Assembly (NCBI GenBank): GCA_964503725.1
Contig: CAZDAV010000002.1
Location: 1 to 28,622, forward strand
Direction: 5' to 3'
From: an uncultured Steroidobacteraceae bacterium
GTDB taxonomy: Bacteria; Chloroflexota; Limnocylindria; QHBO01
DNA: 28,622 nucleotides
Positions 6,438 through 28,622 of the stretch are shown here, piece by piece. The position numbers and the translations under genes were made by a program. The notes beneath the pieces were generated by a model, which had not been told where the DNA came from, ran no database searches, and saw only the letters and a program-made list of their open reading frames with translations. Numbering within the stretch: the stretch's first letter is position 1; every line of letters begins with the position of its first letter.

Positions 6438-6444
6438 CGGGGTC

Positions 6445-6451
6445 TACCCTA
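6445..6451. promoter_or_regulatory. Bidirectional -10 between divergent leaderless genes
   Basis: Only 20 bp separate the two starts. TACCCT (6445-50) lies 7 nt before ATG 6458; TAGGGT (minus, 6451-46) lies 8 nt before ATG 6437. Confidence 0.6.
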
Positions 6452-6457
6452 GCGCCG

Positions 6458-8040: not shown

Positions 8041-8199
8041 CTCGGGCGCGTCCTGTTCGTGCTGTTGCTGCTCGTGCTGCTGATCGGTGGCGGCATGAAG
8101 CTGGCCGGCATGCAGATCCCGATCCTGGACCACCCCCTGGGCGGACCGTTCAGCCAGCCGCGGATCGATGTGGTCGAGCCGGACCTGCCTCTGCCGTAA
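8041..8199 (+). CDS. Small membrane protein, start uncertain
   Basis: Frame LGRVLFVLLLLVLLIGGGMKLAGMQIPILDHPLGGPFSQPRIDVVEPDLPLP with coding-like GC3. Possible starts are GTG 8059 or ATG 8095. Confidence 0.5.
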   Translation, partial: LGRVLFVLLLLVLLIGGGMKLAGMQIPILDHPLGGPFSQPRIDVVEPDLPLP

Positions 8200-10695: not shown

Positions 10696-10699
10696 CGAA

Positions 10700-12193: not shown

Positions 12194-12277
12194 CGCACGC
12201 AATCATGAGCGACCAACTCCTTGGAAGACTTCCTTTGCGCTCATTCGATGACGAGAGCATTGCAGTACGCTCCCGCG

Positions 12278-13102
12278 ATGGCGACGCCGCATGTATCCGT
12301 CACCATCATCGTCGCCACATACGAACGCCCCGCGTGGCTCGCGATTGCCCTGCGGTCGATCCAGTTGAGCGCCGAGTTCGCCACACTGCGCCGCATTACG
12401 ACTCGGATTCTGGTCGTGGACGACGGTTCGCCATCGTCAGAGACCAGGGACGTCGCCGCCTCGCTCGGGGTCGACTACCTGAGGAATGATGAGAACGATG
12501 GCCGAAATAACCCATCCGCTGCACGACTCATCGGGCTCAACGCAGTCGACACCACCTACTACGCATTCTTCGACGACGACGACGTCATGCTGCCACGATG
12601 GGTAGCAGCCCACGTTGAAGCCATCGCAGAGGGCTATGACATAGCGTATTCGGCCTACTGGCTGACGAACGCGGAGCTCGTCCCGCAGCGCCGAATCGTT
12701 CCGTACCGGGTGAGGCTCGGCGACATGCTCTCCGATCACAACCCCGTCAACGACCACTGCCTCGTCGCAACGGACGCCGCTCGGGACGTGTGGAATGTGG
12801 ATCTTGAGAAGGCGATGATGTTCGGCGGTTGGCTCGAACTCGCCTATCGCGGGGCCCGGTTTGTCCGGATCTCGGAGCCAACCTACCTGTATCGCCGACA
12901 CAGTCGCAACATGAGCGATGAGGTGGACCCACGGTTCCTGGAGATCCGAGAACGCCTCGTCCAGGACTACCGCGCCCGGGTCATGACGCGGGACGGCCGT
13001 ATCCCGGGGCCATCGCTGCAACTCAGGACGCGGCGACGAATCGCTCCCGTTGCCCGCGCCGTTCTCCGAGCCAGCCGCGCCATGAGATCGCGTCTTGCTT
13101 AG
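12278..13102 (+). CDS. GT2 glycosyltransferase
   Basis: Motifs 'IIVATYER', 'VVDDGS' and 'FFDDDD'. TACGCT lies 6 nt before ATG 12278 (ORF track starts at 12221). Confidence 0.88.
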   Translation: MATPHVSVTIIVATYERPAWLAIALRSIQLSAEFATLRRITTRILVVDDGSPSSETRDVAASLGVDYLRNDENDGRNNPSAARLIGLNAVDTTYYAFFDDDDVMLPRWVAAHVEAIAEGYDIAYSAYWLTNAELVPQRRIVPYRVRLGDMLSDHNPVNDHCLVATDAARDVWNVDLEKAMMFGGWLELAYRGARFVRISEPTYLYRRHSRNMSDEVDPRFLEIRERLVQDYRARVMTRDGRIPGPSLQLRTRRRIAPVARAVLRASRAMRSRLA

Positions 13103-13165
13103 GCCTCAACGTCCCCTGTTTGGGACGAGCAGCGCGGAACGAATTCGTGCAATGGACAACACGCA

Positions 13166-13960
13166 TTGACCCGCCCTGTTGACGTGCTGGTCCGCACTGC
13201 CGGGATCCTGCGGCAGCTCGGGATCAGATGTGGGTTCAGGTATCTATTCGTTGAGCGATCAGTCCGGGCATTGGACCGATTGCTTAGGCGTGAGCCCGCC
13301 AGAACTCCATATCAATTGCGCCCAACTGGTGCCGACCTTCCGCTTTGGTTGCGGGCGAACACAAGTGACCGACAAGTCTTCTCTCAGGTATTCGTCGAGC
13401 GGGAGTACGCCTGTCTCGACAATGTCGCACATCCGCAGCTCATCATCGATTGCGGAGCCAACGTCGGGTACACGTCGGCGTTCTTCCTGTCGCGATTCCC
13501 GAGTGCGCACCTGGTTGCCGTCGAGCCGGATCCGGGGAACTTCGCCATGCTCCAAAAGAATCTTGGCGGTTATGGCACCAGAGTGACTGCAGTACGAACG
13601 GCGGTATGGTCACATGCGGTCGGACTCAAGCTGTCACGCGGCGCCGATGATGACCGGGACTGGGCTGTCCAAGTGCGGCCGCTGCGCGATAACGAAGCCC
13701 CAGACCTCATCGCGACCGATATCGGACATCTACTGGAATCATCGGGGTTCGACCGCATCGATATTTTGAAGATCGATGTGGAGCATGCAGAGGTCGAGAT
13801 ATTCGGCCGAGGTTTTGAATCTTGGTTGGATCGGGTAGATCACATCGCGATTGAGTTACATGGCGAGGATGCGCACGACGCCTTCTTTGGCGCGCTCGAC
13901 CCCGCCGAATTCACCTTCTCGCACTATGGCGAACTCACGATCGCGAGCCGGTCCCATTGA
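13166..13960 (+). CDS. FkbM-family methyltransferase
   Basis: Motifs 'SDRQVFSQVF', 'IIDCGANVG', 'AVEPDPGNF' and 'IDILKIDVEHAE'. Confidence 0.92.
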   Translation: MTRPVDVLVRTAGILRQLGIRCGFRYLFVERSVRALDRLLRREPARTPYQLRPTGADLPLWLRANTSDRQVFSQVFVEREYACLDNVAHPQLIIDCGANVGYTSAFFLSRFPSAHLVAVEPDPGNFAMLQKNLGGYGTRVTAVRTAVWSHAVGLKLSRGADDDRDWAVQVRPLRDNEAPDLIATDIGHLLESSGFDRIDILKIDVEHAEVEIFGRGFESWLDRVDHIAIELHGEDAHDAFFGALDPAEFTFSHYGELTIASRSH

Positions 13961-15003
13961 GCAACCGAGTTGAGACCTCAGCAGCGGCCCAACCTGCACC
14001 GCCACTAACGGTCAGCCTGCTCGTCGCCGTCCGTAACGAGGCGAAAGCCCTCGACGCTTGCCTCCGCTCGATCGAGGCTCAGGACTATCCCCGTGCGCTC
14101 ATCGAGGTCATCGTCGCGGATGGTCAATCGACCGATGACTCGGCTCGAGTTGCCGGGGAGATATGCGCTCGGCATGAGACATGGCGCGTGCTCGAGAACC
14201 CGGGCCGTGTCCAATCCGCTGGTTGGAACCTGGGAGTAGCTCGCGCGAGTGGCGGCATTGTCGGCATCGTGAGCGCCCATGCAGAGTTGGATCGCTCATA
14301 CGTTACACACGCCGTGGAGACCCTTCGGCGAACTGGTGCCGAAATGGTCGGCGGCCACTTCACGCCGGTCGGGGTGGGCGTTGTCGGAGAAGCCGTGGCT
14401 GCCGCCCTCAGCTCCCCATTCGGAACTGGAGGGGCGGCATTTCGGCTGGGCCGCATAGAGCGAGAAGTTGATACCGTCTTCATGGGCGTGTGCTGGGTAG
14501 AGACGTATCGACGGTTCCCATTCGACGAGCGGTTCGTACGAAATCAAGACGACGAGCACAGCTATCGCCTTCGCGATGCGGGCGGCCGAATCGTCATGAA
14601 CCCGCTGATTCGGAGCTTCTACAAGAATCGAGCGACTCTGGGCTCCCTCGCATCCCAGTACTACCAGTACGGCTTCTGGAAGGTGCGGGTGCTGAGGCTT
14701 CACCCGAGACAGGTTCAGGTGCGCCAGCTGGCGCCGGCACTGCTCGTGGGGGCGTTCCTGATCGCCGGTGCTAGCTCTCTCATCTGGGACTCAGCCCGCT
14801 TCGGGCTCGCAGCCGTCGCCGTGTCTTACCTCGCGGCAGACCTTTTCGCCAGCCTGAAGTTGAGGCAGACAGTGCCAGGAAGGTCGCTCGCAGTGCTTCC
14901 ACTCGTATTCGCGACACTGCATGTCAGCTATGGGGTGGGAATGATCGTCGGTGTCGTGGCGGCGGTTGGCACCGCGTCACGTTCGTACCGTCCGATCGAG
15001 TAA
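13957..15003 (+). CDS. GT2 glycosyltransferase, ExoA-like
   Basis: Motifs 'VAVRNE', 'VADGQSTD', 'QSAGWNLG', 'FVRNQDDE' and 'QYYQYGFW'; C-terminal TM helices. Confidence 0.92.
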   Translation: MSNRVETSAAAQPAPPLTVSLLVAVRNEAKALDACLRSIEAQDYPRALIEVIVADGQSTDDSARVAGEICARHETWRVLENPGRVQSAGWNLGVARASGGIVGIVSAHAELDRSYVTHAVETLRRTGAEMVGGHFTPVGVGVVGEAVAAALSSPFGTGGAAFRLGRIEREVDTVFMGVCWVETYRRFPFDERFVRNQDDEHSYRLRDAGGRIVMNPLIRSFYKNRATLGSLASQYYQYGFWKVRVLRLHPRQVQVRQLAPALLVGAFLIAGASSLIWDSARFGLAAVAVSYLAADLFASLKLRQTVPGRSLAVLPLVFATLHVSYGVGMIVGVVAAVGTASRSYRPIE

Positions 15004-15085
15004 CAGGTCCTGCGTGAAGCTCGCCGCGGCGCTGCACCGCCGCACCGGTCGAATTTCAGCGGACGAGTCCCATACCGGAGTACCG

Positions 15086-15115
15086 TTGACCCGCCGCACC
15101 GTCGCCGGGTAGCCT
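15086..15115 (+). promoter_or_regulatory. Sigma70-type promoter for the aminotransferase/pglCF/ligase operon
   Basis: TTGACC, 18 nt, TAGCCT. Confidence 0.6.
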
Positions 15116-15145
15116 GCCGCCCCAAGTCAAGCGAGGGCACACAGG

Positions 15146-16315
15146 ATCAGCTCCGAACCGATCCCATTCCATCGCCCGTCGATCGGCGATCGCGAGGTTG
15201 CGGCCGCCGGCGAGGTGCTGCGTTCCGGCTGGCTCACCACTGGCCCGCGGACACATGCCTTCGAAAGCGCCTTCGCGGAGCGTCTTGGCGTTCGACACGC
15301 TCTGGCCGTCAATTCGGCCACCGCCGCGCTGCACCTGGCGCTCGATGCGCTCGGGGTAGCCCCCGGCGACGAGGTGATCGTGCCGACATTCACCTTCACC
15401 GCATGTGGCGAGGTCTGCGCGTACCTGGGTGCTCGAGTTGTCCTGGCCGATGTCGGCGACGACCGCCTGATCAATCCTGCGACGCTCGGCTCTGTCCTGA
15501 CGAAGCGGACGAAGGTTGTCATGCCCGTGCACTACGCGGGGCAGGCGGTCGATACGGGGCCGCTGCGCGCCACGGCTGGGCCCGAGGTCCGTGTCCTCGA
15601 GGACGCCGCTCATGCGCTGCCCGCCGATGTCGGGGGAGTTCCGGCTGGCCGGCTCGGAGATGCGGCCGCGTTCAGCTTCTATGCCACCAAGACGATGACC
15701 ACCGGTGGCGAGGGCGGGATGCTCGTGACGGACGACGACGCCATCGCCGATCGCGCCAGGCGAATGCGCCTGCACGGTATCGACGCGGACGCCTGGAACC
15801 GATATGGCGCGGGCGGCAGCTGGTTCTACGAGGTCACCGAGGCCGGGTTCAAGTACAACCTCACCGACCTGGCGGCTGCCATTGGGCTGGTCCAGCTCGC
15901 TCGACTGGACGAGATGGCCGACAGGCGAGCGGCCATCGCCAATGCGTACGACGCCGCGCTGGGCGAATCCACCCTGGTGGAGCTTCCGCCTCGACGCGAG
16001 CGCGACCGCCATTCGTGGCACCTGTACGCCATTGGCCTGCGTCTCGATGGGTTGTCGGCCGAGCGTGCCCGCGTGGTCGAACTGCTCGCCGATGCCGGAA
16101 TCGGGTCGGCCGTGCACTTCATTCCCCTCCACCTCCATCCGTACTACCAGCGCACCTACGGCTACCGGCCCGGAGACTTCCCGGTGGCCGAGGCGATCTA
16201 TGCGCGGACCTTGTCGCTGCCGATCTGGCCCGACATGACCGCCGAGCAGGTGCAACGCGTGGCCAGCACGCTGCTGACGATCCTGGATGATGCCCGCCGG
16301 CCGGTCGAGGTCTGA
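15146..16315 (+). CDS. DegT/DnrJ/EryC1/StrS PLP-dependent sugar aminotransferase (PglE-like)
   Basis: Motifs 'IPFHRPSIG', 'AVNSATAALH', 'EDAAHA' and 'FSFYATKTMTTGGEGG' (PLP Lys). The family N-terminus lies upstream of the first canonical start (GTG 15215); an ATC at 15146 has GAGG 9 nt upstream. Confidence 0.93.
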   Translation: MSSEPIPFHRPSIGDREVAAAGEVLRSGWLTTGPRTHAFESAFAERLGVRHALAVNSATAALHLALDALGVAPGDEVIVPTFTFTACGEVCAYLGARVVLADVGDDRLINPATLGSVLTKRTKVVMPVHYAGQAVDTGPLRATAGPEVRVLEDAAHALPADVGGVPAGRLGDAAAFSFYATKTMTTGGEGGMLVTDDDAIADRARRMRLHGIDADAWNRYGAGGSWFYEVTEAGFKYNLTDLAAAIGLVQLARLDEMADRRAAIANAYDAALGESTLVELPPRRERDRHSWHLYAIGLRLDGLSAERARVVELLADAGIGSAVHFIPLHLHPYYQRTYGYRPGDFPVAEAIYARTLSLPIWPDMTAEQVQRVASTLLTILDDARRPVEV

Positions 16316-16319
16316 TCGA

Positions 16320-18800
16320 TTGCACACCTGGCAGGCCGTCCTGAAGCGCGGGGTTGATCTGCTGCTGGGCACAATGGCCATCGTGCTGCTCCTGCCACTT
16401 GGTCTGGTCATCGCGCTGGCGGTGGTGGCCGACTCGTCGGGTGCGGCCATCTATGGAGCGCAGCGGGTCGGTCGCGGGGGCCGCCTGTTCACGATGTACA
16501 AGTTCCGTTCGATGGCCCAGGGAGCCGACCGCGCCGGCCCGGGCGTGACCGGTGCATACGACTACCGCGTCACGCGGGTCGGCACCTTCCTGCGTCGCAC
16601 GAAGCTGGACGAGCTGCCGCAGCTCCTGAACGTTCTCAAGGGAGACATGTCGCTGGTGGGTCCTCGGCCCGAGGCCCCGGCGTACGTCGAGCTGTGGACA
16701 CCCAAGGAGCGCGAGGTGCTCCGGGTCCGCCCCGGCGTGACTGGTCCCGCGCAGATCGCCTACGTCGACGAAGAGGAGCTTCTGGTTGGACCGGACCCCG
16801 ATGTCGCGTACGAGTCGGACCTGCTGCATGCGAAGCTGGCAATGGACCTGGAATATGTGCGCGGCTACGCAGTCCGGCGCGACCTGCTCATCCTATGGCG
16901 CACTGTCGCTCGCATCCTGTCGTCGTCTGGGCGGCGCTCAAACCGCCCCCGGCGGCGCTACACGTTGATGGAGCGACTGCGCGGCACGTCATTGAGATGG
17001 CTGCTGCTGGATGCCGTGCTGGCCGGCCTGGCAGCCAGCCTGGCGGTGGGGCTCCGGATCGACCGCAACAACATCCTGGCGGCGGTCGCGACCTACTGGG
17101 TCTTCGTGCCGCTCGCGATGGCGATCCGCCCGGCGGGGCTCCTGTTGTCGGGCGCATACCTTCGGGTGTGGCGCTACCCCACCATCAGCGACGCGGCCCT
17201 GATTGTTTCGTCTCTGGCCGCCGGATCACTGGCCATGATGCTGGCGGTCTTCTTCGTCCTCCAGCCGTCCGGTTTCCCAAGCACGGCCGGCTTCCCGCGC
17301 AGCGCAATCGTGATCGAGTTCGTCCTGTCGCTGCTGCTGCTTGGCGGCGTCCGCGTCGCATCCCGCGTGCGGCAGGAGGGCCTCGACGTGGTGCCGACCT
17401 TCGTCGGAGGACCGCCCAAGCCGGTGTTGATCTACGGAGCAGGCGAGGCGGGCGCAATGCTGGTCCGCGAGATGCTTCGGAACCGGGCCCTCCGGCTCGA
17501 CCCCGTGGCTTTCCTGGACGATGACATCGCCAAGCGCGGCCAGCGCATCTACGGCGTCGAGGTGGTCGGCACCGGGTTGGACCTGCCGCAGGTGGTCGCG
17601 GACCGCGATGTTGCCGAGGTCATCATCGCCATGCCGCGCGCGGCCGGCCCCGAGGTGCGCAGGGTGGTGACCCTGTGCGAGGCGGCGGCGGTGCCGGTGC
17701 GCACGCTGCCCGGAGTCCAGGAGCTCCTGGATGACACCGTCGCCGTCAGCAAGGTCCGCGACGTTCGCCTCGAGGACCTGCTTCGGCGCGACCCGGTCCC
17801 CATCCCGGATGAACCACTCCGGCAATGGCTCAAGGGGCAGACCGTCCTGGTGACGGGGGCCGGCGGAAGCATCGGCTCGGAGGTGTGCCGCCAGGTAGCG
17901 GACCTCGGAGCGAGCAAGGTCGTGCTGTTCGAGCAGTCGGAAACGCCGCTCTTCAACATCGAGCAGCTGCTCCGTCGCCGTCATCCGGAGATCGATGTGG
18001 TGACCGCCCTGGCCGACGTCGCAGACGAGCAGACCGTTGATCGAGTGCTCGCAAGACACCGCCCCGGGATCCTCGTTCACGCGGCGGCGCACAAGCATGT
18101 GCCGATGTCAGAAGCGCACGTCGCGCAGGCGGTCCTGACCAATGTCCGCGGGACCCGGATCGTCGTGGAGGCAGCGGCCCGAGCGGGAGTCGGGACGCTC
18201 GTGTTCGTGAGCACGGACAAGGCTGTGGACGCGTCCTCGGTGATGGGAGCAACCAAGCGACTCGGCGAGGAGATCGTTCGCCAGGTGGCCACGGACGCAC
18301 CAGGCCGATTCGTGATCGTCCGATTCGGAAACGTGCTGGGTTCCCAGGGCAGCGTGGTCGAGATCTTCCGACAGCAGATTGCCGATGGCGGTCCAATCAC
18401 GGTGACGCACCCGGAGATGACCAGGTACTTCATGCTCATCCCCGAAGCCGTCCGGCTCATCCTGCTCGCCGGCGCGGTGGGCAGCACCAGCTCGGTCTAC
18501 GTCCTGGAGATGGGCGACCCGATCCGGATCGTTGACCTGGCACGGGACATGATTCGCCTGGTTGCGACGCCCGGCCAGGAGGTCCAGATCGTGCATACCG
18601 GCCTCCGGCCGGGAGAGAAGATGGAGGAGTCGCTCTTCTCCACCGACGAGGTGCCCGGACCGACCTCCTACGGCGGCCTGATCCTCGCCCAGCGCGGCCC
18701 GCAACCCAAACGAGACGCGATTGCGGCGGCCTGCGAACTCGAACGCGTCGCTCTGATCGGGGACGAGGACGGTCTGCGCGCACTCCTGGTCCATGCCTGA
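16320..18800 (+). CDS. Fusion of a monotopic phosphoglycosyl transferase (PglC-like) and a membrane NDP-sugar 4,6-dehydratase (PglF/CapD-like)
   Basis: N-half 'YKFRSM', '[24 protein letters not shown]'; C-half 'TGAGGSIGS', 'AAHKHVP', 'STDKAV', 'MGATK', 'VRFGNVLGS', 'GLRPGEK'. Start TTG 16320 has GAGGT upstream (ORF track 16287). Confidence 0.94.
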
Positions 18801-21063
18801 GGACCGGTCAACTCGGGAGTCTCTCCCGAGGATGTTGCTTGCGGCGCTGCTGCTCTTCTTTGTGCTGCTTGGTGGTACGGAGGCTGGGCGCCTGATCCCC
18901 GGCCTGCGCACCGCCGCGGCCCTCATGGCGGGCGCCCTGATCGCCGCCTGTGTCTGGCGAAGCAGCCGTTACTCCGACCGAACGGACAGGCTGATGGTGC
19001 TGGCCCTGGTCGCGTTCGTGGTCACCTGCGCCATGTCGCAGTTCCCGCGCTTCTCGTTCGACGCGGCCACCACCGCGCTGGCGCTCTGCGCCGCCTTCCT
19101 GGTCGCGCGTGAAGTCGTCAGCACCGAGGCGGCTCGCCAGCTGCTGATCACGGTGCTGGGACTGTGCGGCCTGGTTCTGGCAGTCGCATTCGCCGTCATG
19201 TGGGGCCTGGTCTGGGTTCGATGGCTGTCGATCCCCGGTGCGGGCCTCCCGCCGCTCGAACTGATCCTCCCGGTCGGCCCATACCGGCACTACCACGTCG
19301 TCGGCATGACGGTCTCGCTGCTACTGCCTGCGTTGATCGCCATGGGCGCTCGGCGCGGATTCGTCCGGCCAGCTGCCTACCTCGGGATCGTCGCGACCGT
19401 CGCCGTCATCGTCTTGAGCGGATCCCGCACGGTCTGGCTGGCGACCGTGGTGGGTCTCTCGCTTCCACTCCTCGCGCGGAGGGCCGGCTCGCTGCGCAGA
19501 GTCCCCGCGCCGGCCTACGCCGTCCTGGCGGTCGCGGCGGTCCTGCTCCTGGTCTCCGGAGCGGCCAACCCCATCCTCGACCGCCTGGCGGGCACATCAA
19601 CGCTCCAGCTGCGGGGCGAGATCTGGACGGCGACGCTGGAACGATGGCTGGCGCACCCACTCTTTGGATCGGGGCCTGGCTCGTTCTCCGCCACCCTGAC
19701 GCTGGGCGACTTCTTCGCACGTTTCCCGAACGTGGGGCGCCATGCGGACAACGCGGTCATTCAGCTCCTGGCCGAGGGTGGACTCCTGGGGATTGCCGGG
19801 CTGGGCTTGCTGGTGGCGGGGATCCTCGCTGGGATGCGTCGCCGACCCACGCTCCCCTGGGCACCGGCGGCTGGGGTTCTCATCTTCGTGTTCAGCTCAT
19901 TCACCGACAATCCCTCGGATACGACCAGCCTCGTCGTCATTGCGCTCGCCTGGGCTGTCCTTGCCGTTGCGCCCAGGGAGGACGCCCGGAGCGTCGAGGA
20001 CGCCGGTCATGGGCGGCGCACCGTCCGCTACGCAGCGTTGGCCAGCGGAGTCGTGATGGCGGTCGCCTGCGGGCTGACCCTCCTTGCCGGGTGGTCCTTT
20101 GATCAGGCGACCGCGGCTGCACGACGAGGGGATGATGCCGAGGTGGTGGAGCGTCTCGCAGGTGCCGTCGCGTTGGACCCATCCTTCGCCCTCTATCGAA
20201 GGGAGCACGGTGTCTGGCTGATGTCGGAGGGAGATCCCGACGGTGCCCGGCGAGAGCTGGAGATCGCCTTCGCCATGAATCCGGCGGACGCGACCGCGGC
20301 GCGCGCCCTGGCACTCCTCGCGACAGCCGACAGCCGCGTCGCGGCTGCGATTGCCTGGGCGGAACAGGCGGTTCGTCTGCGGGCGACCCATGCCGAGAAT
20401 CGCCTCACCCTCGCCTATGTCGCGGGCCGCGGCGGCGAGGGCGACCTTGCGAAGGACGCCTTGATCGACGTCCTGCGAAATGAGCCCTGGATCGCGGCGG
20501 CACCGGATTGGACGACGCTCTTCCCTGTTGGCGATCAACTCAATGAGCTGCTTGCCGGAGCCCAGAGCAGCGCGGCTTCTGAGCCGGGTGGGAGTCGCCT
20601 GCAACTTGCTGATGCCTGGCTGGCCGCCTCGATTGGGATTCCTGCGCCCGACGGGATCCCCCAGGACGCGGTTGCGTCGGCCGCCATCATCGAGTGTCGC
20701 CTGACGCAGGCGCAGGCTGCCATCGAGGCCATGACGGCGGCCGAGGCGGTCTCGAGCGATGGGCTGCTGGCACGAGTGCTTGTCGCACGGGCATCGGGCT
20801 CAACATCCCTCGGTGACGTGATCGCACTCGCCGGCCTCAGGTGGCCGCTGCTGGGCGTCCTGGCCACTCAGCCGATACGAGGCGCCTCGCCGTTTGCCGA
20901 CCCGGCCACCGATATCGCTCTGTATCGCCGCTTGCCGATGCCCGCCCCCGACCTTGGCCCCATCCTGCCGACCGGCGACTCGGGCCTGAGCGCTTGGCTG
21001 CGCGAGCCCGCTGTCGCGGCGGACCGCGGGGCACCCAACAGTGGGTTGGCTACCTGCCGGTAG
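18793..21063 (+). CDS. O-antigen ligase / O-OTase family (Wzy_C) protein with a long helical C-terminal extension
   Basis: Motifs 'LSGSRTVWL', 'RGEIW', 'HPLFGSGPGSF' and 'HADNAVIQLLAEGG'; TPR-like segments 'AVALDPSFALY', 'AMNPAD' and 'AVRLRATH'; 8-bp overlap with the upstream gene. Confidence 0.88.
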   Translation: MPEDRSTRESLPRMLLAALLLFFVLLGGTEAGRLIPGLRTAAALMAGALIAACVWRSSRYSDRTDRLMVLALVAFVVTCAMSQFPRFSFDAATTALALCAAFLVAREVVSTEAARQLLITVLGLCGLVLAVAFAVMWGLVWVRWLSIPGAGLPPLELILPVGPYRHYHVVGMTVSLLLPALIAMGARRGFVRPAAYLGIVATVAVIVLSGSRTVWLATVVGLSLPLLARRAGSLRRVPAPAYAVLAVAAVLLLVSGAANPILDRLAGTSTLQLRGEIWTATLERWLAHPLFGSGPGSFSATLTLGDFFARFPNVGRHADNAVIQLLAEGGLLGIAGLGLLVAGILAGMRRRPTLPWAPAAGVLIFVFSSFTDNPSDTTSLVVIALAWAVLAVAPREDARSVEDAGHGRRTVRYAALASGVVMAVACGLTLLAGWSFDQATAAARRGDDAEVVERLAGAVALDPSFALYRREHGVWLMSEGDPDGARRELEIAFAMNPADATAARALALLATADSRVAAAIAWAEQAVRLRATHAENRLTLAYVAGRGGEGDLAKDALIDVLRNEPWIAAAPDWTTLFPVGDQLNELLAGAQSSAASEPGGSRLQLADAWLAASIGIPAPDGIPQDAVASAAIIECRLTQAQAAIEAMTAAEAVSSDGLLARVLVARASGSTSLGDVIALAGLRWPLLGVLATQPIRGASPFADPATDIALYRRLPMPAPDLGPILPTGDSGLSAWLREPAVAADRGAPNSGLATCR

Positions 21064-21075: not shown

Positions 21076-22050
21076 TCACGCTCCGGCGGGCTCGACCGCC
21101 CCACGGCGTGCTCTGTTGGAGATCCACCTCGCCATGCGCCTCATCCAGGGGTGCTTGAGCGCGAAATAGGCGCCAAACGCGAAGGCGATGCCGCCGATGA
21201 CGTCGATCACGTAGTGATGCCCAAGGTAGATGACGGAAAACCAGATCGCCGCGCTCCACGCCAGCAGGACGAGAGACGCGCGGGGCCAGCGCTCCCGCAC
21301 GAACAGGTACGCCAGCAGGGGATACGCCGAATGCAGGGAGGGGAACGCGGCAACTGGGTTGCCGGACATGCTGCCGTACAGCCAGGTCGTGACCGGCGCG
21401 AATTGCAGCTGGGTAAAGGTCGAGCGAGCGATGTCCTCGACCGCAAGTGACTCCCCGAACGCGCCGGCGAAGCGCGGCGGGGCGACCGGGATGACCAGAT
21501 AGCAGAGAAACGCCGCAAACGACATGAGCATCAGCGCCATCAGGTACCGATAGAAGAGGCCGCGCTGCAACACCCAGAAGGCGAACGCGACGACCAGCGG
21601 CAATGCGAAGTGCGCGACATAGAGGAAGGTCGTGACCAGGTCCAGCGCATTGACGCTGCCCGGCGTATGGAACGCGGCCTGAAGGTCCTCCGCGGGGATG
21701 CGGCCGAAGAAGAGGAATCGCTCCAGGGCGATCACATCATTGGAGTGCACCGCCATGCCCAGCTCGTCCGCCATGCCGCGCATCGACTCCCACGCCAGGA
21801 ATATCGCGACAAACGGCAGCCAATCCCTCAGGAAGAGTCGGGTCCGGCCAAGGACCACGGCGATGACCAGCGCGAACACGATGAACAGGTCGGGGCTCAT
21901 GTACGCCCCGCGCACCACCATGACGACCAGCACCAGCGCGACATAGCCGACCAGCAGCGACACCATCGCGCGACTGAGCCGGCGCCGGTCGTCATGGTGG
22001 ACGACCGGCTGGTCGACGATGGCGGGGCGCGTGCTGGCAGCCGTTGTCAC
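21076..22050 (-). CDS. Aur1/inositol-phosphorylceramide-synthase-like PAP2 membrane protein, copy 1
   Basis: Motifs 'RDWLPF', 'PVAPPR', 'AAFPSLH' and 'YLGHHYVID'. Start GTG 22050 chosen by comparison with copy 2 (ORF track 22086). Confidence 0.87.
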   Translation of the reverse strand: MTTAASTRPAIVDQPVVHHDDRRRLSRAMVSLLVGYVALVLVVMVVRGAYMSPDLFIVFALVIAVVLGRTRLFLRDWLPFVAIFLAWESMRGMADELGMAVHSNDVIALERFLFFGRIPAEDLQAAFHTPGSVNALDLVTTFLYVAHFALPLVVAFAFWVLQRGLFYRYLMALMLMSFAAFLCYLVIPVAPPRFAGAFGESLAVEDIARSTFTQLQFAPVTTWLYGSMSGNPVAAFPSLHSAYPLLAYLFVRERWPRASLVLLAWSAAIWFSVIYLGHHYVIDVIGGIAFAFGAYFALKHPWMRRMARWISNRARRGAVEPAGA

Positions 22051-22166
22051 GGGGTCGCTCGCGCGTCGCGCGCTGGCCCGATGCACATCAGGTCGCGCTC
22101 AACAGAGTTGTCCGGGATCAATCGATCGACCGCTCCTTCACCCTGCCTGATCGGTCGGGGCAGCCG

Positions 22167-22195
22167 ATAGTACCTGCGGGGTACCAATCGGCCAA
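22167..22195 (-). promoter_or_regulatory. Putative sigma70 promoter for PAP2 copy 1
   Basis: TTGGCC, 17 nt, TACTAT on the minus strand. Confidence 0.5.
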
Positions 22196-22260
22196 GCCCC
22201 TGCGGTGCTGGTCGTGCAGTTACCGTTGACCGGATGCATCAGAGCTCATTGAGGTCCAAC

Positions 22261-22288
22261 CCGCCGTGTACCGCACCGCCGTGTACCG
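22261..22288. repeat. 13-bp direct repeat CCGCCGTGTACCG x2 (15-bp period)
   Basis: Exact copies at 22261-73 and 22276-88. Confidence 0.85.
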
Positions 22289-22336
22289 GACCAGGGCGAC
22301 TCCATCGCTGCCGGCGTCGAGCACCAGGTCGTACTG

Positions 22337-22365
22337 TTGACTCGACGCATCGGCCTCCCTAACGT
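22337..22365 (+). promoter_or_regulatory. Sigma70-type promoter, leaderless transcript
   Basis: TTGACT, 17 nt, TAACGT, 8 nt, GTG 22374. Confidence 0.7.
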
Positions 22366-22373
22366 CCCGCTTC

Positions 22374-23342
22374 GTGAGTGAAAGTGCCCTGACGACATCG
22401 CCGTCGACGGTCCCAGTGCCCGAAGACGCTCAGCACGGCCGGTCGTTGAATCGGTTCACGACGGTGCTGCTCATCGGCTACCTGGGATTCATCGTGGCCT
22501 TCATGGTCCTGAAGCGCGCCGCCGTCACCGCGGACGTCTTCGTGGTCTTCGTCAGCGTCATCGCCATCATGCTCGGGCGCGGCAAGGCGTTCGTCCGCGA
22601 CTGGGCCCCGTTCCTGCTCATCTTCCTGGCCTGGGAGGCCATGCGCGGCGTCGCACATCAGTTCGGCGCCGAGGTGCAGTCCGACGCGGTCATCGCCGTC
22701 GAGCGCTTCATCAGCCTGGGCATCGTGCCGCCCGTCGAGCTGCAGCGCTTGCTGCACACGCCCGGCGTGGTCGGCCCACTCGAGGTGGTGACGGCCGTCA
22801 TTTATGCGGCGCACTTCCTGCTGCCGCTTGCCGTTGCCTTCGTGCTCTGGCTCAAGCGGCGCTCGGCCTACTACCCCTACGTGATCGCCCTGATGCTCAT
22901 GTCCTTCGCGCAGTTCTTCACTGCCATCGTGCTCCCGGTCGCGCCGCCCCGCTATGCCGGCCTGTACGGCGAGGCGCTGAACGTCGTCGATCTCGGCTCA
23001 GTGGTTGCGCAGCAGACCGGCATCGGCGTCCTGAGCTGGGCGTACCACAACATGATCGGCAACCCGGTGGCCGCCTTCCCGTCGCTGCATGCGGCCTACC
23101 CGATCCTGGCCTACCTCTTCCTGCGCGACCACTGGCCGCGAGCCGCGTGGCTCATGCTGGCCTACACCGCCGCGGTCTGGTTCTCGATCATGTACCTGGG
23201 TCACCACTACCTGGTCGACGCGCTGGGCGGGTTGGTCTACGCCGTGGCTGCCTATCTCGTCGTGCGATCGGCGATTTCAGGGCGCCTCGGGCAATGGTGG
23301 AACGCGCGGCGGCGAAGGGCGAGCCAGCCCGGACGCGTTTAG
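22374..23342 (+). CDS. Aur1/IPC-synthase-like PAP2 membrane protein, copy 2
   Basis: Motifs 'RDWAPF', 'PVAPPR', 'AAFPSLH' and 'YLGHHYLVD'; collinear with copy 1. Confidence 0.9.
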   Translation: MSESALTTSPSTVPVPEDAQHGRSLNRFTTVLLIGYLGFIVAFMVLKRAAVTADVFVVFVSVIAIMLGRGKAFVRDWAPFLLIFLAWEAMRGVAHQFGAEVQSDAVIAVERFISLGIVPPVELQRLLHTPGVVGPLEVVTAVIYAAHFLLPLAVAFVLWLKRRSAYYPYVIALMLMSFAQFFTAIVLPVAPPRYAGLYGEALNVVDLGSVVAQQTGIGVLSWAYHNMIGNPVAAFPSLHAAYPILAYLFLRDHWPRAAWLMLAYTAAVWFSIMYLGHHYLVDALGGLVYAVAAYLVVRSAISGRLGQWWNARRRRASQPGRV

Positions 23343-23379
23343 CATCGACGGGTGGACCTCCCAACGGGCGGACACCACG

Positions 23380-24243
23380 ATGGCTGACGCTCGTCGCCTG
23401 GCCCGGCTGGTGGCCATAGCCGTCGTCGTTGGGATCGGCATCGTCAACCTGTACTGGGCCGTCACGGCCTGGACGCTCTCCGATGCGCAGGCCTACTGGG
23501 ACGCCGCCCAACGCCTGCGGGGCGGGGCCGATCTGTACCCTGTGGTGGCGAACGTGGATGCGTCGGAGGTGTACCGATACGCCCCGTGGTTCGCCTGGCT
23601 GGCCGTGCCGTTCACCTTCCTGCCGGAGCAGGTCGCGGGGGCGCTCTGGTCGGCGATCCTGCTCGCGGCGAGCGGGGCGGCCCTGGTGCCGATGATCCGG
23701 GCGCGGGCCTGGCTGCTGGTCGCCTTCTTCGCCCCGATCCTGGTTGGCATCAGCGCCGTCGGCAACGTGCAGGCGCTGATGATCGCCGCGCTGGTGTGGG
23801 GCGTGGAGCGGCGCAGCGGGCCGCTCTGGATCGCGCTGGCCGCTTCCCTGAAGATCTTCCCGATCCTGCTGGTGGCGGTCTACCTGGGTCGGCGGGAGTG
23901 GGTGCGTGCCGCGCTCACCGTCGTCGTCACGGTCTTGCTATGGGCGCCGGCACTGCTCTACGACCTGCGTGGCTACGCGACCGATCCCGGCCACGCCGGC
24001 TCGCTCTTCGCCATTCCGTGGCTATGGGTGGCGGTGCTTGCGGCCGGGCTGGTGGCGACACGCTGGCTGGCGCGCTCAGCGTACGGCTGGCTCGCGGCGG
24101 CGACCACCGTGGTGGTGGCGCTCCCGCGCCTCTTCGTCTACGACGTCACCTACCTGATGGTGGGGCTGCCCGACCGGCCCCGCACACCCCGAGCGGCGGA
24201 CCGAGCCGTGGATCACGGGGGCGCCCCGCTGCGGAGGACGTAG
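23380..24243 (+). CDS. GT87 (PimE/AftC-like, DUF2029) GT-C glycosyltransferase
   Basis: Motifs 'SDAQAYWDAAQRL', 'YRYAPWFA', 'GNVQ' and 'ASLKIFP'. Start re-called to ATG 23380; the ORF-track start 23089 overlaps the PAP2 gene. Confidence 0.87.
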   Translation: MADARRLARLVAIAVVVGIGIVNLYWAVTAWTLSDAQAYWDAAQRLRGGADLYPVVANVDASEVYRYAPWFAWLAVPFTFLPEQVAGALWSAILLAASGAALVPMIRARAWLLVAFFAPILVGISAVGNVQALMIAALVWGVERRSGPLWIALAASLKIFPILLVAVYLGRREWVRAALTVVVTVLLWAPALLYDLRGYATDPGHAGSLFAIPWLWVAVLAAGLVATRWLARSAYGWLAAATTVVVALPRLFVYDVTYLMVGLPDRPRTPRAADRAVDHGGAPLRRT

Positions 24244-25718
24244 ATCGGCCACCCGGCAATCGTGGCTGCCAGCTCGTAGCGCTCGGCCACGAAGGCGCGC
24301 AGCGGATCGAGCAGGTCGAGATCGCGCCCGTCAGTCAGGATGGGCCGGTCGATGAGCAGCGGCAGGAAGCCCGGCTGCCCGGGTCCGTTCGAGCCAGCAT
24401 CCACCACCACCGCCGGGGGGGCGGCAACCAGCGCGCGAGCCACGTCCGTCACCATGGCGGCGGTCGAGTAGCCAGGCGTGCTCAGCGCATAGAAGTAGGA
24501 GAAGCGGGTCGCCGGCGCGCGGTCGGCCAGGTCGAAGAGCGCCGGCTCGTTGCCCCAGACGAGCATCGTGCCGGCGGGAAGGTCGTCGAGCCGCTCCGAC
24601 ACGGCCTGCATCCGCGCCGATTGGTCGGCCAGCGGAGCGATCTGCATCGCGGCCGAGATCACGCCGGCCACAACCGATACCAGCATGGTGACGATCAACG
24701 GCAGGACGATTGTGACCCGTCGTCCCGACCGGCCAACATGTACCAGCGACTCCCCCACTCGACGGAGCCCCAGGCCGGCCAGGATTCCGAGCGGCACTGC
24801 CAGCGGGATGGCGTAGTGAGCGTAGAAGCGGCCCTGCGCAACGAAGAGCACCAGTGACCCGGCGATCCACGCCAGGCAAGCCAGCATCACGCCACGAATC
24901 GGCTGGGGAGCCTTTGCCAGGGATGCCGCGCCGACGAGTGCCGGCGCCAATAGAAAGAGCGAAGTGAGGACGGCCCAGGACGCGACCGGCGCTGCGAGCG
25001 TGGCGCCGTACTCGCCGCTCGAGGCCCGGTACGCTCCAGAGTAGGTGACGATAGCGTCGAACGCCGCCGGCAGCGTCCCTGTCACCGCCAGCCAGAACCC
25101 GACGACGGCCAGCGAGGCGAAGAGGCCGAGCGCCAGGGCCCCGGTGCCCCCCAGTCGTGTGCCGCGGGGTCTCAGGGAACGGGCAAGGACAAGCACGCCC
25201 AGGGCCCCGGCCAGCAGCTGGAGGGAAAAGAGAAGCGACATGGCCACCAGCGCGCCGATCGAGACCAGGCGAAAGCCCGACGCCGGTGCCACAACGAGCA
25301 CGAGCGCCCCAGCCAGGAGGAGCGTCGCCGGCGGTTCGGTGAGCCCGCCGCCAAGCGCGAGCAGGTAGTGGCCTGCCAGTACCACTACGCCGGCCGCGCC
25401 CAGGGCACGCGGCCACCCGGCCACGCCCAGGCGCCCAAGCACAGCCGCCACCGCAACGCCCAGGCTCGCCGTGGTCGCGAGTGACAGCAGCCAGTCCGCC
25501 GGCCACGGCCCGAGCCAGCCAAGGAGCACCTGCCCGGCGGCTGATGCCAGGTAGATGCCCGGCGGCTTGTGGTCCCAAGCGCCGACGTACGGTGCAACGC
25601 CGTCCAGGAGGCGGCCGCCAACATGGCTGAAGACGGCCGCATCAAACGACGGACCGACCAGCAGACCGGGGGCCAGGAGGACTCCCGACAGCACCACGAG
25701 CGCGATGACGAGGATCAC
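24213..25718 (-). CDS. GT-C transferase (ArnT/PMT_2-like), paralog A
   Basis: 'SFDAAVF...WDHKPPGIY' first-loop motif, 'LTEP', many TM helices, soluble C-terminal domain. Confidence 0.82.
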   Translation of the reverse strand: MILVIALVVLSGVLLAPGLLVGPSFDAAVFSHVGGRLLDGVAPYVGAWDHKPPGIYLASAAGQVLLGWLGPWPADWLLSLATTASLGVAVAAVLGRLGVAGWPRALGAAGVVVLAGHYLLALGGGLTEPPATLLLAGALVLVVAPASGFRLVSIGALVAMSLLFSLQLLAGALGVLVLARSLRPRGTRLGGTGALALGLFASLAVVGFWLAVTGTLPAAFDAIVTYSGAYRASSGEYGATLAAPVASWAVLTSLFLLAPALVGAASLAKAPQPIRGVMLACLAWIAGSLVLFVAQGRFYAHYAIPLAVPLGILAGLGLRRVGESLVHVGRSGRRVTIVLPLIVTMLVSVVAGVISAAMQIAPLADQSARMQAVSERLDDLPAGTMLVWGNEPALFDLADRAPATRFSYFYALSTPGYSTAAMVTDVARALVAAPPAVVVDAGSNGPGQPGFLPLLIDRPILTDGRDLDLLDPLRAFVAERYELAATIAGWPIYVLRSGAPP

Positions 25719-25776
25719 AGGCCCCGATTGTGGGCCACACGAAAACCTGGCGCGGTCGCCGTGGGTTGCGCTCCAG

Positions 25777-27309
25777 CTACCTCTCGCTGCGAGCGTCGAG
25801 GCTGGCCACCGTGCCGCTGTCGTTGCGGAGCACGTAGACCGGCCAGCCGGCCACCGTGGCCGTCAACTGGTAGTGCTCGGCGACGAAGGCGCGGAGCGGG
25901 TCGAGCAGGTCGAGGTTGCGGCCATCGGTGAGGACCGGGCGCGCGATCAGGAGCGGCAGGAAGCCGGGGGCACCGGGCGAATCCGACCCCGCGTCAACCA
26001 CGACAGCCGGAGGGTTGGCGGCGAGCTCCTGCGCCATTTCACTGACCATGGCAGCGGTGCTATACCCGGGTGTGGTGAGCGGGTAGAAGTAGATGTAGTC
26101 GGTCGCGGGGGCCCGCCCGGACTCGTCGTACAGGCGCGGTTCCTTGCCCCACACCAGCATCGTGCCGGCGGGGAGATCGCGCAGTCGTGCCGAGACGGCC
26201 TCGACCCGCTCGAAGCGGGAGGAGGCCGAGACCATCTGCATCGTGGTCGACCAGACGCCGGCCTGGACCGATACGACCAGCGCAGCGGCCAGCGGCACTG
26301 CGATGAGAAGGCGCCGCCCGGACCAGCGAACCTCGCGCAGCCACTCGCCGATCCGCTCGAGCCCGAGGCCCGCCAGGATGCCGATCGGGACAGCGAGAGG
26401 AATGGCGTAGTGAGCGTAGAAGCGGCCCTGCATGACGAAGAGCACCACCGAGCCGCCGATCCACAGCAGGGAGACGATCGCCACGCTGCGGCGCGGCTGC
26501 GAGGCAGTGCCGGCCGAAATGGCGCCGATCGCCGCCGGGATGATGAGGTAGGCCATCAGGAGGACGGTTCCAAGCGCCGCTCCCGCCCCGAGCTTCGCGC
26601 CGTAGCCGGCGCTGGCTGCCACGTACGCGGCGGAATAGGTGATGACCGCGTCGACCGCGGCCGGCAGAGCGCCCATGACACCCAGCCACGCGGCGGTGGC
26701 GGCGATCGGCATGACCGCGCCCGCGACGAGGAATGCGGCACGTTGGGGGCGAGACCGTGCGGGCTGAAGGGTGAGCGCCAGGATCATCACGAGCGCGGCC
26801 GCGGGAAGCAGCTGGATCGAGACGAGCAGCGCCATCCCCAGCAGGCCACCCACCGCGCCCAGGCTGGCATAGCCGGAGCGTCGCAGGGCGAGCGCGAGGG
26901 AAGTCGCGACCAGGGCCGTGGCAACCGGCTCGGTCAGCCCGCCGCCGAGCGCAAGCAGGTAGTCACCGGCGAGGAACACGACGCCGAGCGCGCCGAGCGC
27001 ACGTGGCCAGCCGGTTACGCCGAGGCGGCGGAGCACCGACGCCACGGCGACCCCCAGGCCGGCTGTAGCGCCGAGTGACAGGAGCCAGTCCGCGGTCCAT
27101 GGGCCGAGCCAGCCAAGGGCAGCCTGTACAGCGGCTGACATGAGGTAGATGCCCGGTGGCTTGTGGTCCCAGGCGGCGAGATAAGGAGCCGAGCCGTCGA
27201 GGATATGGCCGCCAACCTGGTTGAAGACCGCGGCATCGAGCGACGGCCCGACGACCAGCCCGGGAGCGAGCATTGCGGCTGCGAAGAGAACCAGGATGAG
27301 TCCAAGCAT
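25777..27309 (-). CDS. GT-C transferase (ArnT/PMT_2-like), paralog B
   Basis: 'SLDAAVF...WDHKPPGIY'; collinear with paralog A, with long identical peptides such as 'QGRFYAHYAIPLAVP'. Confidence 0.82.
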   Translation of the reverse strand: MLGLILVLFAAAMLAPGLVVGPSLDAAVFNQVGGHILDGSAPYLAAWDHKPPGIYLMSAAVQAALGWLGPWTADWLLSLGATAGLGVAVASVLRRLGVTGWPRALGALGVVFLAGDYLLALGGGLTEPVATALVATSLALALRRSGYASLGAVGGLLGMALLVSIQLLPAAALVMILALTLQPARSRPQRAAFLVAGAVMPIAATAAWLGVMGALPAAVDAVITYSAAYVAASAGYGAKLGAGAALGTVLLMAYLIIPAAIGAISAGTASQPRRSVAIVSLLWIGGSVVLFVMQGRFYAHYAIPLAVPIGILAGLGLERIGEWLREVRWSGRRLLIAVPLAAALVVSVQAGVWSTTMQMVSASSRFERVEAVSARLRDLPAGTMLVWGKEPRLYDESGRAPATDYIYFYPLTTPGYSTAAMVSEMAQELAANPPAVVVDAGSDSPGAPGFLPLLIARPVLTDGRNLDLLDPLRAFVAEHYQLTATVAGWPVYVLRNDSGTVASLDARSER

Positions 27310-27446
27310 TGGTGCCTGGAATTCTACGCGGCACCCACAGCGCGGTCGTTGGCACTAATGGGTCAAGGAGTTTGGCGCCGCCGCGTCGTCGACGCCCTTC
27401 GGGCAGCGGGTCCTATGCTCGACGGCTCAAGGCACGTACTCCGGTA

Positions 27447-28322
27447 CTACGCCTGAGCGCGGCTCGGGTTCGCCGGGTCAACCCTCGTCGGGCGCCTGGC
27501 GAGGCCGATCAGCAGGAAACCGATCTCGTAGCTGAGCAGGCGGGGGAGCGCCGCGATCATCGCCAGCGACGCGGCCAGCCAGGCGAAGCGGCCGCGCGCC
27601 GCGACCCATGCCAGCCCGATCAGCGCGAGGGCCACCGCCAGGTACAGCAGAACCGCCACCGAGGTCAGGCTCATCTGCCCCGGTCCGGGGCTGGTGGAGT
27701 AGCCCGACAGGTCGAACAGGAAGGCCGGCAGCACGAGCGACGCCGAGATGAGGAGCGCCCAGCCGGCGCGGACCCACTCGCCTCGCCCGGCGTAGACCAG
27801 CGCCAGCAGCAGCGGGACCGCCTTGAGCGACGCGCCGACCGCGATCCAGATCGGCCCGGACCGCCGCTCGACGCCCCACATCAGCATCAGAACGAGGGCC
27901 GGCTGCACGTTACCGAAGACGGCGCCCTGCAGCTGGAGCGGCGCGAAGACGGAGAAGGCCGCCCAACCGGCTGGACCGCGGCGCAGCAGCGGGGCAGTCG
28001 ACAGCAGCGCTGCCGCGACCATCAGGCCCACCCAGCCGGCGGTCACGGCGTCCCGCGGCAGCAGGCTGAGTGGCGCCCAGGCGTAGGCGAACCAGGGGGC
28101 ATATCGGTACAGCTCGGTGTCGTTGGCCGCGCCACCGGCATACAGCGGCAGGCCGGCGCGCAGGCGATCGGCCGCACCAAGGTATGCCGCCACGTCGGCG
28201 CCGAGGCCACGACTCAGCGCGTAGGTGCCGAGCGCGTATGCGACCAGGGCGAAGAGCACCGCCGCCATCCCGAACGCGATCCACGACAGCGGTGTCCGTG
28301 GAACCCAGGGCGATCGGCGCAT
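27447..28322 (-). CDS. GT87 GT-C glycosyltransferase
   Basis: Motifs 'ADVAAYLGAADRL', 'YRYAPWFA', 'GNVQP', 'ERRSGPIWIA' and 'SLKAVP'. Start 28322 preferred because ATG 28358 collides with the divergent gene's start. Confidence 0.87.
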   Translation of the reverse strand: MRRSPWVPRTPLSWIAFGMAAVLFALVAYALGTYALSRGLGADVAAYLGAADRLRAGLPLYAGGAANDTELYRYAPWFAYAWAPLSLLPRDAVTAGWVGLMVAAALLSTAPLLRRGPAGWAAFSVFAPLQLQGAVFGNVQPALVLMLMWGVERRSGPIWIAVGASLKAVPLLLALVYAGRGEWVRAGWALLISASLVLPAFLFDLSGYSTSPGPGQMSLTSVAVLLYLAVALALIGLAWVAARGRFAWLAASLAMIAALPRLLSYEIGFLLIGLARRPTRVDPANPSRAQA

Positions 28323-28332
28323 ACCGCGGCAG

Positions 28333-28350
28333 ACGATACTCTGCGAGGTG
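28333..28350. promoter_or_regulatory. Overlapping divergent -10 hexamers plus SD
   Basis: TATCGT (minus, 28338-33) and TACTCT (plus, 28337-42) share a TA; GAGGTG (28345-50) lies 6 nt before ATG 28357. Confidence 0.45.
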
Positions 28351-28356
28351 CCGAAC

Positions 28357-28622
28357 ATGACCGCTGCCTCCGCTCCCCGGACCTCGCGTCATGGCCGATG
28401 GGCCGAGCGCCTGGCGATCGGGCTCCTCTTCGCTTTCGCCCTGGCGAGCCTGTGGATCCAGGCGCGGAGCTGACGCTTCGAGGACGTGGGGGCCTACTGG
28501 GAGGCGGCGTTTCGGCTCCGCGACGGACTGCCGTTATACGGCGGCCCATCCGATCCGGACAGCTACCGCCGCCTGGCTCGCGTGGCGCCAATCGCCATTT
28601 GTGTGGGTCGCTACCTCGGTCG
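28357..28622 (+). pseudogene. Disrupted GT87 gene, running off the window end
   Basis: In-frame TGA at 28471-73, after which the same frame continues 'RFEDVGAYWEAAFRLRDGLPLY' (the GT87 motif) and then appears to jump to a much later segment. Confidence 0.75.

Follow-up and report, generated by a model that had tools for sequence, protein, structure and literature searches.

The catalytic subunit of inositol phosphorylceramide (IPC) synthase in Saccharomyces cerevisiae, Aur1 (structures 9ivc, 9vj3 and 9vj4), and its paralog Ipt1 belong to the Pfam family PAP2_3, and Ipt1 shows that this family can take a sugar-bearing acceptor. To our knowledge, BT_1522 of Bacteroides thetaiotaomicron, a phosphoinositol dihydroceramide synthase (NCBIfam model NF052609) that serves Bacteroides sphingolipids, is the one bacterial homolog of Aur1 whose function has been proven genetically. 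Its gene is located in an operon with those of myo-inositol-phosphate synthase (MIPS), phosphatidylinositol phosphate (PIP) synthase and PIP phosphatase, and its function needs serine palmitoyltransferase (SPT) (Heaver et al., 2022; PMC9246714). Here, we analyzed two genes of the same Pfam family, papA and papB, which lie among glycosyltransferase genes at one end of a 28.6-kb stretch of DNA (hereafter, the window). The window is an entire contig (C2) of a 1.37-Mb metagenome-assembled genome (MAG; G000) that is 75% complete. An original prediction, made from the letters of the window, had left open whether this is a Chloroflexota genome; the nearest records are labelled either 'Chloroflexia' or Candidatus Limnocylindria, which places the host in this phylum. 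In this Limnocylindria-like Chloroflexota MAG, the segment at 21.1-28.6 kb forms the variable core of an island that assembles cell-envelope glycans. Our leading reading, which we hold tentatively and at somewhat less than even confidence, is that papA and papB are optional outer-face phospho-head-group transferases that modify the surface glycan or its lipid carrier.

The two proteins were compared with Aur1 and with PAP2 phosphatases by profile and by fold. papA (21076..22086, minus strand) encodes a membrane enzyme of 336 amino acids (aa) and papB (22374..23342, plus strand) one of 322 aa with eight predicted helices. They scored 89 and 101.5 bits, respectively, against Pfam PF14378 (PAP2_3; cut-off 27 bits), and both matched this model from end to end (positions 2-189 of 190). 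They were 48% identical to each other, and both contained the PSLH and GHHYxxD motifs (GHHYVID in papA), as expected from the prediction of two divergent Aur1-like PAP2 paralogs with intact motifs. Yeast Aur1 was found with papB by phmmer (E 8.8e-10), and a profile of 31 PAP2_3 homologs (alignment A2) gave an E-value of 2e-16 for Aur1 versus 7e-5 for Bacillus subtilis PgpB. The AlphaFold (AF2) model of papB had a mean pLDDT of 83, and its top Foldseek matches were the Aur1 structures 9ivc and 9vj4 (E 1.5e-7 for 9ivc_A; TM-scores 0.55-0.63, with 0.55/0.63 for 9vj4_A). LpxE was next (E 1.6e-3), and PgpB and SMSr were also far behind. Profile and fold searches thus both placed Aur1 ahead of the PAP2 phosphatases, in line with the predicted likeness, and on this basis papA and papB appear clearly nearer to Aur1 than to those phosphatases.

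Residues H239, H278 and D282 of papB were invariant in the 31 sequences and aligned with H255, H294 and D298 of Aur1, each of which is essential to IPC synthesis in vitro (PMC13133130). The loops that carry them are predicted to face outward, as judged from predicted helices and charges read by hand rather than by a topology program. Aur1, as the best solved structural match, shares with papA and papB 23-24% identity, about eight helices, the H-H-D triad, the absence of the C3 Arg of PAP2 phosphatases and near-identical motifs (PxAPP(R/W)Y, AFPSLH and YLxHHYxVD). Unlike Aur1, papA and papB have no known Kei1-like partner and carry an Arg in place of the Trp of PPWY; moreover, their genes are located in a glycan-assembly island and not among lipid genes, in a genus for which no ceramide pathway was found.

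To examine the genomic context of this family, we used a tree and the gene neighbourhoods of 88 PAP2_3 homologs, in which a copy was considered linked if it was within 6 kb of genes for GT87, Wzy_C or a further GT-C glycosyltransferase family that we refer to as WDHKPPG. All 19 linked copies fell into one clade of 24 sequences (support 99/98), and none of the 64 copies outside that clade was linked. Not one of 500 label shuffles was as clustered on the tree as the observed labels; thus, the clustering of PAP2_3 with GT-C genes exceeds chance. The clades from Dormibacterota, other Chloroflexota and Patescibacteria/Actinomycetota contained no linked copies, and the neighbours in clades that were not linked to GT-Cs were uninformative (DNA polymerase III, RecG, two-component systems, VIT and FakA). 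An overlap of PAP2_3 with the start of lgt (prolipoprotein diacylglyceryl transferase) was seen only in two close Dormibacterota loci (L005, 9872-11826, and L006). In total, PAP2_3 genes were found beside GT87, WDHKPPG or PMT_2-type GT-C genes and/or Wzy_C-TPR genes in about 20 related loci, so that the linkage noticed in the window recurs in relatives. The two copies of the window fell into separate subclades: papA-type copies were convergent with Wzy_C-TPR in the window and in loci L039 and L042, and papB-type copies were placed between WDHKPPG and GT87 in L001, L038 and L039.

This linkage was one-sided. Among 29 loci that had a WDHKPPG gene at least 38% identical to that of the window, GT87 was found within 10 kb in 26 and PAP2_3 in 7. 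Strong PAP2_3 matches were present in 4 of the 13 genomes of the genus, whereas GT87 was found in all 21 relatives (1-18 matches per genome) and MIPS in 18 of them. One genome of the same genus (G008, 99% complete) has orthologs of both intact GT87 genes of the window and two Wzy_C-TPR genes, and both PAP2_3 and WDHKPPG are absent from it. On these counts, PAP2_3 is an optional component, unlike GT87, MIPS and the WDHKPPG/GT87 module.

The backbone of the island is a module of short GT87 genes and ArnT/STT3-like WDHKPPG genes that have no Pfam family, which in the window is located near a Wzx flippase, a PglC-PglF starter enzyme and a Wzy_C-TPR protein. As GC content was ~68% across the window, there were many long spurious open reading frames (ORFs), and frames were chosen by third-position GC (GC3) followed by a Pfam check. 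GC3 confirmed the frames at 21.1-28.6 kb and left no additional gene between those described here, which agrees with the claim that no unrelated gene interrupts the set. The gene order from 21076 to 28622 was PAP2, PAP2, GT87, GT-C, GT-C, GT87 and a GT87 fragment. It had been proposed that three GT87 genes are followed by two WDHKPPG genes; the two WDHKPPG genes are there, but only two GT87 genes are intact, the third is a fragment, and the two types are interleaved.

The first GT87 gene, GT87a (23380..24243, plus strand; 287 aa; frame set by GC3), begins 37 bp downstream of papB. It scored 35 bits against Pfam GT87 (PF09594; cut-off 25 bits) and covers only positions 1-145 of the 237 in this model. 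Orthologs with 65-74% identity were found in L001, L002 and G005; no solved relative was found by sequence search, and the solved PimE was not matched. GT87b (27447..28358, minus strand) is also short, with up to 303 aa (its start may be the Met at 28322), and has an ortholog in L001 with 79% identity. Its score was a borderline 23.4 bits, or 27.1 bits with neighbouring stretches. GT87c (28357..28622, plus strand) is a broken or misassembled third copy at the contig end. It is 74% identical to residues 40-119 of its L001 ortholog, contains an in-frame TGA at 28471-28473 and, past nucleotide 28569, jumps in another frame to the equivalent of residues 279-299 of that ortholog. Given the stop and the frame jump, GT87c is either a pseudogene or was misassembled where the contig ends.

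The two WDHKPPG paralogs, paralog 1 (24213..25718, minus strand; 501 aa; family alignment A1) and paralog 2 (25777..27309, minus strand; 510 aa), were 61% identical. Neither matched any Pfam or NCBIfam family, even at an E-value of 10. Of the families named in the original prediction, PAP2_3 was matched by both PAP2 proteins, GT87 was matched in part by GT87a and at a borderline score by GT87b, and PMT_2 was not matched by the WDHKPPG proteins of the window. PMT_2 was reached by 5 of 10 remote WDHKPPG relatives, at 23-39 bits. The AlphaFold (AF2) model of paralog 2 (pLDDT 87) showed a GT-C fold of the ArnT/STT3-like kind with a small C-terminal alpha/beta domain. Its best Foldseek match was ArnT (5ezm; E 6e-6, TM-score 0.57), followed by STT3, AglB, AftA and RgtA-C; ArnT, STT3, AglB and AftA led this search at probability 1.00, and RgtB had TM-scores of 0.61-0.62. 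An Asp in the first outer loop (D48) was invariant in the 34 sequences of alignment A1. The WDHKPPG proteins thus share with the GT83/GT39-like GT-C_A enzymes (ArnT, RgtA-C and PMT_2) the fold and this invariant Asp, and differ from them in the small C-terminal domain and in their tight coupling to GT87 in the loci counted above. The family is large: a search of a library of 50%-identity clusters gave 399 representatives at E <= 1e-30. In two genomes the WDHKPPG ortholog was interrupted, being split over two frames in G003 (C4:682389-683880) and containing a TAG in G004 (C27:10478-11968); these breaks may be either long-read assembly errors or decay within a variable island.

Another described system that resembles this island is the mycobacterial and corynebacterial pathway for phosphatidylinositol mannosides (PIM), lipomannan (LM) and lipoarabinomannan (LAM), which employs the GT4 enzymes PimA and PimB', PimE of GT87 and the GT-C enzymes MptA/B. 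Here, too, phosphatidylinositol (PI) genes, a PimB'/PimA-like GT4, many GT87 genes and further GT-Cs are present. Runs of 5-10 GT87 genes are common in the class (for example, G014, G011:C9:78-98 kb and G018:C35). In contrast to the actinobacterial pathway, the GT87 proteins here are ~290 aa long and match the Pfam model only in part, the second GT-C family is not covered by Pfam, and the phylum is Chloroflexota. We know of no Aur1-like enzyme in the PIM-LM-LAM pathway. The expansion of GT87 and the near-universal PI genes suggest that PIM/LM-like lipoglycans are made independently of PAP2_3.

Regarding the inositol supply, a CDP-alcohol transferase encoded on contig C56 of the MAG matched NF045883 (PIP synthase) over its full length with 149 bits, which is below the cut-off of 170. 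The gene is located directly upstream of MIPS on the same strand (C56:1-1358 and C245:1204-1629), with MIPS split over two contig ends, on C56 and C245. The same pair was found in three genomes of the genus (L013-L015). Judging from this gene pair, the genome probably makes PI, and the question of PI synthesis that the original prediction had raised can be answered with a probable yes. No match to Pfam NAD_binding_5 was found in the genome, a result that is no evidence of absence since the model also misses the Corynebacterium glutamicum control. A PIP phosphatase was not identified in the genome.

The ceramide supply gave a different picture. Four genomes of the genus, one of them 98% complete, yielded a single alpha-oxoamine synthase and no SPT. 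This enzyme scored at the cut-offs for Kbl/BioF, whereas its scores against three SPT models were 348, 295 and 235 bits (cut-offs 640, 500 and 670, respectively). Since the only alpha-oxoamine synthase is of the Kbl/BioF type, ceramide production by the genus seems unlikely. This also separates papA and papB from BT_1522. Although the NF052609 model aligns along nearly all of papA, papA scored only 77.1 bits and papB 44 bits, far from the equivalog cut-off of 480, and unlike in Bacteroides, the PAP2_3 genes of the window have no linked PI genes and SPT was not found.

These results bear on the function originally proposed for the whole set, namely that the PAP2 enzymes take inositol-phosphate from PI, with a non-glycerol lipid such as a long-chain diol or one resembling ceramide as the acceptor, and that the resulting anchor, similar to PIM or glycosylinositol phosphorylceramide (GIPC), is then glycosylated by the GT87 and WDHKPPG enzymes. 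Several observations fit this proposal, including the Aur1-like fold and triad, the presence of PI synthesis genes, the Chloroflexota genome, the membership of PimE in GT87 and the paralog pair itself, which recalls yeast Aur1 and Ipt1. In addition, a GT4 gene in the left flank of the island (4205-5527, minus strand), which received no specific NCBIfam assignment, has PimB' (3oka, E 1.2e-23) and PimA (2gej and 4n9w; E 2.5e-20) as its best solved relatives. However, an anchor-making enzyme would be expected to occur at least as widely as the enzymes acting after it, and PAP2_3 was present in only a quarter or so (7 of 29) of the WDHKPPG/GT87 loci and was missing from same-genus genomes that have GT87 clusters. 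The absence of SPT and the low NF052609 scores argue against a ceramide acceptor, and the synthesis of diol lipids has no known marker genes. With PAP2_3 optional, PI genes unlinked at all 88 copies and ceramide unlikely, the anchor proposal did not hold up, and we consider it improbable.

In the reading that we prefer, papA and papB would act as phosphodiester head-group transferases, in which H278 would attack a donor lipid at its phosphate, with departure of the lipid alcohol; H239 would then help the hydroxyl of the acceptor to take up the phospho-alcohol. The only donor with precedent is PI, for which the genome has genes. The GT87 and other GT-C enzymes would likewise be active on the external side of the membrane, with polyprenyl-phosphate sugars and polyprenyl-diphosphate glycans as donors. 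Because the dependence runs only from the PAP2_3 clade to the glycan module, the acceptor would most likely be the glycan or its lipid-linked intermediate; the step would be an optional tailoring or attachment and not the founding anchor step, and the acceptor would not be ceramide. Such a reaction could be likened to that of yeast Ipt1, which acts on mannosyl-IPC, or to that of the unrelated GacH, which transfers glycerol-phosphate onto a wall polysaccharide. The GacH/LtaS-type glycerol-phosphate transferases move a phospho-alcohol from a phospholipid to a glycan on the outer face, as proposed here for papA and papB, and a sulfatase-domain enzyme with the same architecture recurs in these islands. 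Their fold and chemistry are unrelated to those of PAP2, being of the sulfatase type with a Thr nucleophile, in contrast to the His nucleophile of PAP2 enzymes.

The main rival to this head-group transfer is that papA and papB are phosphatases for polyprenyl-diphosphate, or another lipid phosphate, which recycle the outer-face carrier released by the Wzy_C ligase or polymerase. The PAP2 superfamily contains phosphatases for undecaprenyl diphosphate (PgpB, BcrC and LpxT), the Wzy_C reaction liberates polyprenyl-diphosphate, and an optional, island-linked extra enzyme of this type would account for the patchy distribution. Several points weigh against our own reading. papA ends 12 bp from the convergent Wzy_C-TPR gene (18793..21063, plus strand), which encodes a membrane protein similar to O-antigen ligases and O-oligosaccharyltransferases with a TPR tail (Pfam Wzy_C 64 bits, plus TPR), and PAP2_3 was also adjacent to Wzy_C in seven other loci (L003, L004, L011, L039, L042, L043 and L046). 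The near-invariant R193 of the clade (see below) could hold an extra phosphate, and it is hard to sort PAP2 hydrolases from transferases by sequence alone. Furthermore, none of the 88 PAP2_3 copies has a PIP-synthase or MIPS gene within 10 kb, and as PI genes are near-universal in the class and PAP2_3 is patchy, nothing links the clade specifically to inositol.

On the other hand, the basic residues typical of the phosphatases are missing. By definition, motif C1 of the three PAP2 motifs (C1, C2 and C3) reads KxxxxxxRP and C3 reads SRxxxxxHxxxD. No canonical C1 motif was found in the alignment of the papA/papB family, where the sole candidate Arg, R193 of APPRY, has no Lys seven residues before it; this Arg is nearly invariant in the clade, and Trp occupies the same position in Aur1 and the Dormibacterota homologs. 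The C3 Arg of B. subtilis PgpB is replaced by Ile or Val in the papA/papB family and by Thr in Aur1. Scores on the model for undecaprenyl-diphosphate phosphatase (NF008813) were very low, at 16-20 bits (cut-off 229), Aur1 matched far better than any phosphatase, and another such enzyme, BacA/UppP, is already present in the MAG and in 20 of 21 relatives. The gene neighbourhoods point in the same direction. At least seven long loci (L001, L002, L037, L044, L045, L047 and L053) pair PAP2_3 with GT-Cs and have no Wzy_C within 10 kb, so that a local source of polyprenyl-diphosphate is not evident there. When a GT-C takes its sugar from a polyprenyl-phosphate donor, the monophosphate is released, for which a phosphatase is not needed. 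Small GT2 genes of the type that makes polyprenyl-phosphate sugars were found inside related islands, with two more elsewhere in the MAG. Conversely, genome G008 keeps its two Wzy_C-TPR genes without any PAP2_3. Taken together, the missing basic residues, the low NF008813 scores, the presence of BacA and the GT-C-only loci favour head-group transfer of the Aur1 type, and we regard the phosphatase explanation as unlikely.

Adjacency to both Wzy_C and GT-C genes, together with the dependence on the glycan module, could also be accounted for if papA and papB transferred a whole phospho-glycan from a polyprenyl-diphosphate- or PI-linked glycan to the cell wall or another acceptor, as a PAP2-based counterpart of the LytR-CpsA-Psr (LCP) ligases. 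The chemistry would be the same as that of Aur1, with a phosphodiester or diphosphate donor from which the lipid leaves. However, no such reaction is known from the PAP2 superfamily, and we give this explanation very little weight.

The conserved left flank (4205..8038), whose synteny was kept in G003, G005 and L008, contains by Pfam the GT4 gene mentioned above, a metallophosphoesterase and a sulfatase-domain enzyme. The sulfatase-domain protein has about five N-terminal transmembrane segments, an architecture similar to that of LtaS and EptA, and enzymes of this kind recur across the same islands; it found no solved relative by sequence search and is unclassified by sequence. LtaS- and EptA-type enzymes move phospho-head groups. 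Right of this flank, the island varies from genome to genome within the genus.

Between the flank and the core, the window contains a Wzx-type polysaccharide cluster (8150..18800) with genes assigned by Pfam to GT4, a double methyltransferase, a flippase, two GT2 enzymes, FkbM, a PglE-like aminotransferase and a PglC-PglF fusion. The aminotransferase (DegT/PglE type; 15215-16315, plus strand; 378 bits) is upstream of the PglC-PglF fusion; a 464-aa ORF on the opposite strand (15056-16450, minus strand) had no Pfam match and was rejected as an antisense artefact. GC content drops to 0.61 at 12-14 kb. In the closest relative (G003/L001, 87% protein identity), this 13-kb cluster is missing at the same position, and the sulfatase gene is immediately followed by WDHKPPG, a pair of PAP2_3 genes and several GT87 genes in a row. 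When the window was compared with L001/L029 of G003, the Wzx cluster resembled an insertion or swap in a hypervariable island following the conserved flank of MFS (major facilitator superfamily), PCMT, GT4 and metallophosphoesterase genes. The Wzy_C-TPR protein that follows this cluster had weak matches to TfpM and to an oligosaccharyltransferase (PDB 9rmk).

Related islands carried further genes or were filed under other taxa. Those at L020-L022 also encode proteins of 667-676 aa in which a spermine-synthase domain is weakly matched, along with proteins that have an HTTM domain, an ABC-2 exporter and a UDP-glucose dehydrogenase paired with an epimerase. Chloroflexota-type islands with up to 70% identity were found in MAGs assigned to Gemmatimonadales, Steroidobacteraceae or Zixibacteria (L008, L041, L043, L046, L068, L115, L116, L125 and L131). 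It is likely that these cases reflect mis-binning, and transfer is possible.

Soil and fresh water harbour abundant Limnocylindria-like Chloroflexota, which are uncultured and whose envelopes are essentially undescribed; our literature searches on GT87 in Chloroflexi and on Limnocylindria found nothing on envelope glycans. Every part of the island described here belongs to a known superfamily. The WDHKPPG family, its tight coupling to short GT87 enzymes and an Aur1-like clade in the glycan islands of an organism that seems to lack ceramide appear to be undescribed in the searched literature. Near-universal PI synthesis, up to 18 GT87 genes and an unnamed GT-C family together resemble the lipoglycan synthesis of actinobacteria. 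The one-sided linkage is in itself a useful negative, as it argues against a new anchor lipid. A broader scenario, which we consider rather doubtful at present, is that an Aur1-type PAP2 clade was recruited in monoderm-type Chloroflexota to modify a surface glycan, made by GT87 and a hitherto unclassified GT-C family, with phospho-inositol, a different phospho-alcohol or an entire phospho-glycan. That such enzymes might add phospho-inositol caps to lipoarabinomannan is speculation. If the scenario were true, it would represent a third, PAP2-based route to envelope glycans that are decorated or anchored through phosphodiesters, beside the routes of the LtaS/GacH type and the LCP type. A glycan-linked Aur1-like clade in an organism without ceramide would broaden the known roles of this family.

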